From Octopus vulgaris (lineage: Eukaryota), in NCBI GenBank assembly GCA_951406725.2, contig OX597832.1, forward strand, positions 34,472,001 through 34,536,000: 64,000 nucleotides of DNA, given 5' to 3'. A program made the position numbers and the translations under genes. Position 1 is the stretch's first letter; every line of letters starts with the position of its first letter. The notes below the pieces were generated by a model, which saw only the letters and a list, made by a program, of their open reading frames with translations, was not told where the DNA came from and searched no databases. Below, piece after piece: positions 37,322 through 38,212 of the stretch.

Positions 37322-38212
37322 ATGTCCAGAGCTTGGAAACGTGATGAACTGGTGTGGTTCCTGCGAGGATGGCAATGCGCTGACGGAGAAAGTCCAAGTA
37401 ACATAATTGCGGCAGCACTAAAGAACAAAGGATTCAAAAGGACATCAGCACAAATAGAGCGGAAGAGGCAAGAGTTCGTACGCTCATACGCACTTGTCAG
37501 ATCGCACATAAACACACTGGATGCCATTTTTAACAGCGAAAAACGCGAACAAAGTAAAGATGGCAAGGATGGAGACGTGGGCGCAGATGAGGAGGGTCAC
37601 CCCCACCTGGTGGACGCCCAGGAAGAAAACTCCAACGATAGGCCTGCCCGGGAGGTGAACCCAGGTACGGATGCTCCTACCGGCTCCAAAAGCCGTGGAC
37701 ATGGAGATGAAGAGGCCAAAAAAAGAGGAAAAACTGAAGCTAAAACTCAGACAAAGCCAAGGGACAAGGCAGCCAGGGACAGAGGCAAACCTAACGGTCC
37801 ATATGCCAAAAAGGATGGAAACAAGCAGCGCACACGGGTATGTAGGTTCTACCTGAAAGGTGCCTGCCGGCATGGAGAGGAAGGTGCAGGCTGCCGCTTT
37901 GCACATCCGGGACCCTGCCACAGAAACCAACCACCGAAAGGAAATGGGATGGACCAGGCATCACCTGCCCCAAAACGGAGGTACGCAGATGTGGTGCGTA
38001 CCACAAACCACCAACGTGTTGTTGAAAGGGCAGCTGCTGAGCAGGAATCTTTTTTGTGCATGGCACAAAAGATTGTACAGCAGCTAACCTGGCTCCATCA
38101 GGCTCAGGCTCGCAGATGGAACTGCCCACAGTTCACAAGACCGCCACAGCAGATGGACCCAGGGTGGACAACGCCGGCAACAGCATACACCTCACCTCGA
38201 TGCTCCTACTGA
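37322..38212 (+). CDS. LINE ORF1 with Myb/SANT(trihelix)-like N-terminus and C-x7-C-x8-C-x3-H finger
   Basis: W..DE...L..W...IAAALKNKGFKRTSAQIERK..F..SY and [22 protein letters not shown]. Confidence 0.87.
   Translation: MSRAWKRDELVWFLRGWQCADGESPSNIIAAALKNKGFKRTSAQIERKRQEFVRSYALVRSHINTLDAIFNSEKREQSKDGKDGDVGADEEGHPHLVDAQEENSNDRPAREVNPGTDAPTGSKSRGHGDEEAKKRGKTEAKTQTKPRDKAARDRGKPNGPYAKKDGNKQRTRVCRFYLKGACRHGEEGAGCRFAHPGPCHRNQPPKGNGMDQASPAPKRRYADVVRTTNHQRVVERAAAEQESFLCMAQKIVQQLTWLHQAQARRWNCPQFTRPPQQMDPGWTTPATAYTSPRCSY

Follow-up and report, generated by a model that had tools for sequence, protein, structure and literature searches.

The element and its copies in the window

The stretch of DNA analysed here (64 kb; hereafter, the window) is AT-rich eukaryotic DNA with a GC content of 33.6%, densely populated by members of one LINE family and of a sister family 75% identical to it. 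The copy at 37–41 kb (c38k) has both of its frames, ORF1 and ORF2, intact. Two further plus-strand copies, c43k and c23k, are 99.7% and 97.3% identical to c38k, respectively, and a minus-strand copy, c34k, carries frame breaks in ORF1 and in the early part of the APE (Table 1). The family has the features of APE-type LINEs: Pfam profiles identify an APE endonuclease and a reverse transcriptase (RT) in ORF2, ORF1 lies upstream, and the dispersed copies are 5′-truncated and end in a simple-repeat (TCAA)n tail. Pyrimidine-rich tandem repeats of 116–159 bp build the 5′ region of the element at 37021–37310 and 21942–22288, with (TAGA)n directly before ORF1.

The C-terminal motif of ORF2 is like that of Proto2 elements, and the element may belong to a Proto2-like clade. 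It further shares with that clade an ORF2 with APE and RT, a PHD/CCCH ORF1 in its relatives, and aquatic invertebrate-type hosts. A mollusc LINE survey finds Proto2 chiefly among bivalves and in one annelid, at low copy number elsewhere (PMC10294476), and an octopus RTE is described as a single-ORF element of different architecture (PMC9115989).

Table 1. Coordinates of the element c38k, its parts and the other copies of its family within the window
Feature	Position	Strand	Remarks
5′ region of c38k: ~150–159-bp tandem repeat, then a (TAGA)n tract leading up to ORF1	37021..37321	+	TRF period 159 at 37021–37310; common to the copy at 22345
ORF1 (296 aa), with a Myb/trihelix-like N-terminus, a single CCCH finger (aa 170–196), the x-F-L motif and a conserved segment behind it	37322..38212	+	Stop TGA at 38210–12
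Last stop of the −1 (ORF2) frame, TGA	38038..38040	+	
Candidate slippery heptamer U_UUU_UUG, ORF1 phase (S-F-L)	38050..38056	+	U_UUU_UUA at the equivalent motif of L002, L004 and L007
Hairpin with the heptamer in its 5′ arm; placement unlike a 3′ stimulator	38046..38074	+	z −3.19 for 38045–38075; forms in the minus copy too
T/A/S/G-rich linker in the −1 frame, sharing its DNA with the ORF1 tail; contains the non-conserved in-frame ATG 38116–18	38056..38193	+	
ORF2 body: APE endonuclease and reverse transcriptase	38194..41160	+	Pfam PF14529, PF03372, PF00078; alignments
3′ UTR ending in (TCAA)n, then (TA)n tract at 41253–42956	41161..41255	+	
c43k: 5′-truncated copy, 99.8% identical, heptamer at ~43209	42959..46413	+	
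c23k: near full-length copy, breaks in ORF2, heptamer at 23238	22345..26419	+	
c34k: 5′-truncated, diverged, broken copy, heptamer at 34630–34624, ATA replacing ATG	31429..34848	−	

The CCCH finger of ORF1 is detected with Pfam at E 5e-4. The Myb domain that the initial annotation had assigned to ORF1 is suggested by a weak Pfam match (PF13837, E 0.05; E 0.0017 in the homolog P0005) and by the predicted structure of residues 1–80 (pLDDT 89), whose best fold match, a weak one, is the DNA-binding domain of the trihelix factor GT-1 (E 0.22, TM 0.59); the top fold matches, GT-1 and RAD Myb, lie at E 0.2–0.8, with none at E ≤ 0.001. The only named close matches to ORF1 belong to Octopus sinensis (78%, across 27% of the query) and to O. 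vulgaris (47%), which makes an octopus the probable host. One protein annotated as partial Octopus sinensis LPIN3 (P0001) carries, in residues 371–447 at its end, a 79%-identical piece of the window ORF1; this tail may be a gene-model artefact or an exonised LINE. Searches of viral and prokaryotic genome collections found no relatives, a search of the ESM Atlas gave no usable match, and no solved APE structure was matched by sequence at E ≤ 1.

A candidate slippery heptamer near the start of the open −1 frame

ORF2 lies in the −1 frame relative to ORF1. This frame is open over 38041–41160 (1039 aa), with 51 codons preceding the APE match, in agreement with the initial annotation, which had described about 50 open codons upstream of APE and a heptamer in ORF1 phase just past the last −1-frame stop. 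Specifically, the heptamer T_TTT_TTG follows that stop by 9 nt and is read in ORF1 as TCT TTT TTG (S243-F244-L245), so that it has the X_XXY_YYZ form in the phase of the upstream ORF. Elsewhere in the element, in-phase XXXYYY heptamers occur once in 989 ORF2 codons and once in 242 upstream ORF1 codons. Given the encoded amino acids, the rough probability of the codon choice at the heptamer is 0.016 for c38k, and 0.017 and 0.035 for two of the distant loci described below (L004 and L007).

All four window copies that cover the site carry the heptamer unchanged, as had been claimed; these copies are not independent, and they prove little by themselves because three of them are 97–99.7% alike and the openness of the overlap is within chance. 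With the ORF1 amino acids fixed, the −1 overlap of c38k stays open in 40–58% of resamplings (P 0.4–0.6). The overlap of the minus copy is indeed open despite its many substitutions, an observation that carries little weight as evidence given these resamplings. Between c38k and c34k, 11 synonymous and 12 non-synonymous differences are found in the ORF1 frame and 2 and 22, respectively, in the −1 frame; since the changes are often silent in ORF1 and not in the −1 frame, the −1 stretch behaves as an unconstrained linker, and the ORF1 frame bears the amino-acid constraint.

Two ATG codons precede or accompany the start of the APE. ATG 38200–02, which precedes the first conserved Asn of the APE by four codons, was correctly placed in the initial annotation, and the ATA that replaces it in the minus copy is present. 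A further in-frame ATG at 38116–18 had been overlooked; it derives from Arg-Trp codons of ORF1, occurs in three of the four copies and is GTG in the minus copy.

Close relatives retain the motif and the open frame

In five close ORF1 homologs (26–42% identity overall), the heptamer column reads SFL, SFL, AFL, NFL and SFL, with the conserved segment after it. The Met encoded at 38200 is replaced by Ile in the minus copy and in P0068 and by Val in P0069, and both of these proteins have an open N-terminal extension of about 45–55 residues before the ORF2 body. As called, P0068 starts at the residue right after the heptamer. P0070 as called begins M-I-L-L-N, with a putative Met at the position of 38200. 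Contigs of four runs, matched at 80% identity, show a local depth peak at 38040–38073, flanked by loose ends ahead of 38026 and past 38094/38100; an island common to diverged subfamilies would give this pattern. None of the 40 variants listed, out of 98, from the contigs of these runs falls within 38046–38170.

The heptamer is conserved in distant DNA loci

A metagenome scan identified seven loci whose APE is 32–40% identical to that of the window element. Three of them, L002, L004 and L007 (33–40% APE identity), cover the x-F-L site together with a tandem-CCCH ORF1. The other four are outside the heptamer count: L001 starts inside the APE, L003 and L005 begin inside the overlap, and L006 is a different LINE with another ORF1. 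All three covering loci read NNT TTT TTA in ORF1 phase, with GAT, TCT and CAT as the first codon in L002, L004 and L007, respectively. The distant loci are 55–68% identical to each other in APE and are therefore not fully independent.

The onset of the open −1 frame coincides with the heptamer in these loci. In particular, the heptamer lies 12 nt (L004) and 9 nt (L007) downstream of the last −1 stop, and the frame then runs to the APE match through 194 and 140 open codons, respectively, without a single Met. Upstream of the heptamer, the −1 frame contains 20 stops in 234 ORF1 codons of L004 and 14 in 166 of L007. With the ORF1 amino acids fixed, openness of this extent has P 0.002–0.011 in L004 and L007 and 0.0007–0.006 in L002; shuffling the codon order of L004 and L007 gives weaker P values of 0.05 and 0.10. 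L002 goes out of frame just past the heptamer, has one Met in the overlap, and looks decayed. The visible part of the overlap comprises 61 open codons with no Met in L003 and 129 open codons with one Met in L005.

Across the overlap, the ORF1 frame, too, stays open beyond expectation (P 0.001–0.003 in L002, 0.03–0.04 in L004 and 0.06–0.09 in L007), and the third frame has stops. In each of the six loci tested, the ORF1 stop falls between −41 and +16 nt relative to the APE start, and an AUG within about 30 nt of that stop is found in c38k only, with none in L002, L003, L004, L005 or L007. In the different LINE L006 (975–1068), ORF2 likewise lies in the −1 frame, with 25 open codons and no Met before the APE; its overlap contains no perfect XXXYYY heptamer and has a G_AAU_UUU-like stretch near its start.

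F-L follows the CCCH fingers in distant ORF1 proteins

A finger profile matched 138 proteins, of which 120 were listed. The longest of those 120 is 684 aa, so that no in-frame ORF1–ORF2 fusion is among them, which speaks weakly for frameshifting. When 11 proteins with partial matches are set aside from 140 finger-profile proteins, F-L follows the full tandem-CCCH match in 108 of 129 proteins (26 expected by composition), 29–157 residues before the end; these homologs are related by descent. In the remaining 21, several of which look truncated, others read DFA, DFQ, NFI or SFF.

The residue before F-L is restricted in a manner consistent with a U at the first position of the heptamer. Residues without a U-ending codon (K/E/Q/M/W) are absent there (0/108, against a background of 28%), and occur in 31/108 one position earlier, in 20/61 before L-L and in 28/46 before I-L. 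They remain absent after clustering (0/71, 0/42 and, at 55% identity, 0/30 with P 4e-5). R/G/L/C/F, for which U-ending codons exist, are missing as well (0/71, 18.5 expected), so the residue before F-L is under further constraints. Protein selection contributes to F-L itself, since the motif starts a conserved, probably helical segment; D, S and N are typical helix caps. At the DNA level, the site is conserved beyond amino-acid need in the three distant loci that cover it; the residue pattern is partly confounded by protein selection. In P0023–P0188, the codon before F-L is seemingly never of the NGU, CUU or UUU type.

The N-termini of these ORF1 proteins vary, with PHD in several distant families and a Myb-like domain in the window family, and the CCCH finger and x-F-L are kept. 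In a profile comparison, window-type and distant ORF1s align over the first CCCH finger only (40 columns), so that the equivalence of their F-L motifs rests on position and order.

RNA structure around the heptamer

The initial annotation had proposed folding the downstream sequence for a stimulatory structure. In the window family, no such structure, a hairpin or pseudoknot that would be expected 5–9 nt downstream, was found: folding z values 3′ of the site range from −0.2 to −1.5 and from +2.0 to −0.9, nothing beyond shuffles, and a pseudoknot search 3′ of the window heptamer gave nothing convincing. The only significant local hairpin has a 3-nt loop and a z of about −3.2, and buries the heptamer in its 5′ arm; a ribosome positioned at the heptamer would unwind it. 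In the distant loci, hairpins start 4 nt (L004) and 7 nt (L007) 3′ of the heptamer, with best z of −3.5 and −3.0 and differing registers; at other window sizes, the L007 hairpin reaches z of only −0.6 to −2.0.

We also examined whether the heptamer site pairs with the element's 3′ end. Such pairing was no better overall than that of other segments and was not accepted. A stretch ~170 nt from the 3′ end is the best partner of the site in one of four copies (−30.3 kcal/mol; mean −13.9, sd 4.2); the same stretch ranks among the top four in c23k and outside the top four in c38k and c43k.

Proposed −1 frameshifting and alternative explanations

We propose that ORF2 is made by programmed −1 ribosomal frameshifting at U_UUU_UUG, which would yield a 1279-aa Myb-like/CCCH–linker–APE–RT fusion, and, judging from sequence, we assign this reading a probability of roughly 0.77. 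The fusion had been proposed in the initial annotation, and is now supported by U_UUU_UUA in all three covering distant loci, by AUG-less overlaps of 140 and 194 codons, and by x-F-L in 108 of 129 proteins. No start codon is conserved in the −1 ORF that opens at the site, and the slippery signal appears to be common to a wide group of CCCH-ORF1 LINEs. The last base of the heptamer, G in the window family versus A in relatives, counts against frameshifting, as does the negative search for a 3′ stimulator in this family.

Under this proposal, most ribosomes would translate ORF1 through to its stop codon, yielding the 296-aa protein with the conserved segment that follows x-F-L. A minority would slip back one base on U_UUU_UUG, bypass the conserved segment and cross the low-complexity linker into APE–RT, joining 245 ORF1 residues to 1034 residues of the ORF2 frame. 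The slip falls just ahead of the conserved C-terminal segment of ORF1, so this segment would be missing from the fusion, which would retain the Myb-like and CCCH modules. The junction would read either ...ESFLVHGTK, the product of a tandem slip, or ...ESFFVHGTK, beside abundant ORF1 protein; the latter, given as the junction in the initial annotation, is thus retained as the alternative product. Frameshifting would set a high ORF1:ORF2 ratio, like that of Gag and Gag-Pol, and would join the nucleic-acid-binding modules of ORF1 to the enzymes. Sequence comparison shows the frame geometry, the phased heptamer, its conservation in the DNA of three distant loci and the lack of a conserved AUG; the ribosomal slip itself, its rate and any stimulator are inferred.

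Two observations are left unexplained by frameshifting, namely that the ORF1 frame is kept open over the overlap and that the ORF1 stop lies near the APE start. They fit a functional Q/P-rich ORF1 tail, or else reinitiation, acting alone or in parallel. Both observations speak for termination–reinitiation, in which a ribosome finishing ORF1 would restart at ATG 38200, 10 nt upstream of the ORF1 stop, or at a near-cognate codon, and make a separate ORF2 protein, the heptamer being a by-product of the x-F-L protein motif. Restart at ATG 38200 would give M-L-L-L-N, and P0070 as called has a comparable beginning; moreover, ORF2 translation in SART1 and L1 is stated to depend on ORF1 translation and possibly to be reinitiation (PMC2881922), and AUG-independent initiation is noted in L1 (PMC5009743), so that an L1-type restart is compatible with the missing AUG. 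We nevertheless consider reinitiation unlikely, because it accounts neither for TTT TTR codons in four lineages nor for the sharp onset of −1 openness at the heptamer and the long AUG-less overlaps, and because there is no UAAUG overlap, ATG 38200 lies in a weak context and is itself not conserved, and the other five loci have no AUG close to the stop.

A start farther upstream would be provided by ATG 38116 or another upstream codon of the overlap, with the heptamer incidental. That ATG is in frame in most window copies, and P0068 has Met there; its origin in the Arg-Trp codons of ORF1, its replacement in the minus copy, the lack of any Met in the overlaps of L003, L004 and L007, and its position about 800 nt into translated ORF1 make internal initiation improbable. 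The same fusion could also arise with no ribosomal slip, if RNA polymerase inserted an extra U into a fraction of the transcripts as it copied the T6 run. Such transcriptional slippage, which according to PMC5009743 takes the place of ribosomal frameshifting in some IS elements, accounts equally for the open −1 frame and the missing AUG. We regard it as very improbable, the least favoured of the explanations considered here: the run comprises just 6 T and invariably has the phase X_XXY_YY, which slippage does not need; no indel is among the variants listed, which come from contigs that drop rare variants and from runs of DNA or of unrecorded kind; and reverse transcription of an edited RNA would leave in-frame fusions in the genome, which the listed ORF1 proteins, as weak evidence, lack.

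Comparison with known systems

Frameshifting is a known mechanism that is already claimed for a LINE; the present case adds a specific site, which a broad and little-described group of LINEs conserves. According to a figure legend in a review (PMC5911963), TRE5-A and TRE3-A of Dictyostelium require a −1 frameshift for ORF2. Like the present element, they are two-ORF LINEs with APE and RT; they differ in host and ORF1, and the legend gives neither slippery site nor assay. In the elements described here, the site precedes the ORF1 stop by 51–174 codons, and distant families conserve a specific heptamer.

The heptamer of L002, L004 and L007, U_UUU_UUA, is identical to the HIV site, where the junction residue is Leu or Phe according to PMC5009743. 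The arrangement shares the X_XXY_YYZ type with HIV-1 gag-pol; it differs in that the window family is a non-LTR element, has G as the last base of the heptamer, and shows no detected 3′ stimulator. Because there is no protease, unlike in retroviral gag-pol, the fusion would stay whole.

With SART1 and human L1, the element shares the need of a bicistronic LINE mRNA to express ORF2, and the ORF1 stop lies near the ORF2 start here too. It differs from them in having no UAAUG stop–start pentamer, no conserved AUG by the stop and a long −1 overlap, and in the predicted fusion product. Initiation of LINE ORF2 is described as unknown (PMC5009743), +1 frameshifting, reinitiation or readthrough is suggested for Paramecium LINEs (PMC5405496), Zorro3 needs its ORF2 AUG (PMC1965478), and the passages listed from a Jockey-superfamily ORF1 classification (PMC4120745) name no CCCH. 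Our literature search, which had most subscription papers and Repbase reports outside its scope, returned no report of a slippery site in CCCH-ORF1 LINEs.

ORF2 translation has been studied in few LINEs (L1 and SART1), both pointing to reinitiation, and a defined, widely conserved slippery site would be a directly testable retroviral solution in a non-LTR element. If the proposal is true, such elements make a fused ORF1–ORF2 protein with a known junction peptide, which offers a route for ORF1 modules to direct insertion, and their ORF2 is mis-annotated when begun at the first Met.

Insertion next to (TA)n tracts

A (TA)n tract adjoins the 5′ end in five of six 5′-truncated copies and follows all five copies matched to the 3′ end of the element, in a window where TA tracts are abundant. 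The element likely prefers (TA)n targets, and the fused Myb-like domain is an attractive candidate cause of this preference. We tentatively suggest a wider scenario, which may well prove too broad: a whole, old invertebrate lineage of CCCH-ORF1 LINEs would make its APE/RT solely by slipping at a conserved mid-ORF1 U_UUU_UUR, as a transframe fusion of the Gag-Pol kind, and the slip would swap the C-terminal segment of ORF1 for the enzymes while passing on its targeting module, PHD in many distant families and Myb/trihelix here, with insertion into (TA)n.

Borders between LINE copies and (TA)n lie at 26419, 31429, 34850, 41255, 42959, 46413, 50136, 50620, 51074 and 59809. The sister family is present at 59809–62674 (+) and 47446–50126 (−), with ~75% DNA identity to the c38k family; its two copies, 96.8% identical to each other, are both 5′-truncated before the junction, and the one at 59.8 kb ends near a TA tract at 62674. 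The segments 37798–41450 and 42959–46608 are head-to-tail copies, 99.4–99.8% identical, separated by a 1.7-kb TA tract, and may reflect a very recent insertion, a local duplication or an assembly duplication. Finally, 4.4 kb at 16530–20951 match their own reverse complement at 97.5%, probably because the stretch is either TA-rich and of low complexity or one large inverted repeat.
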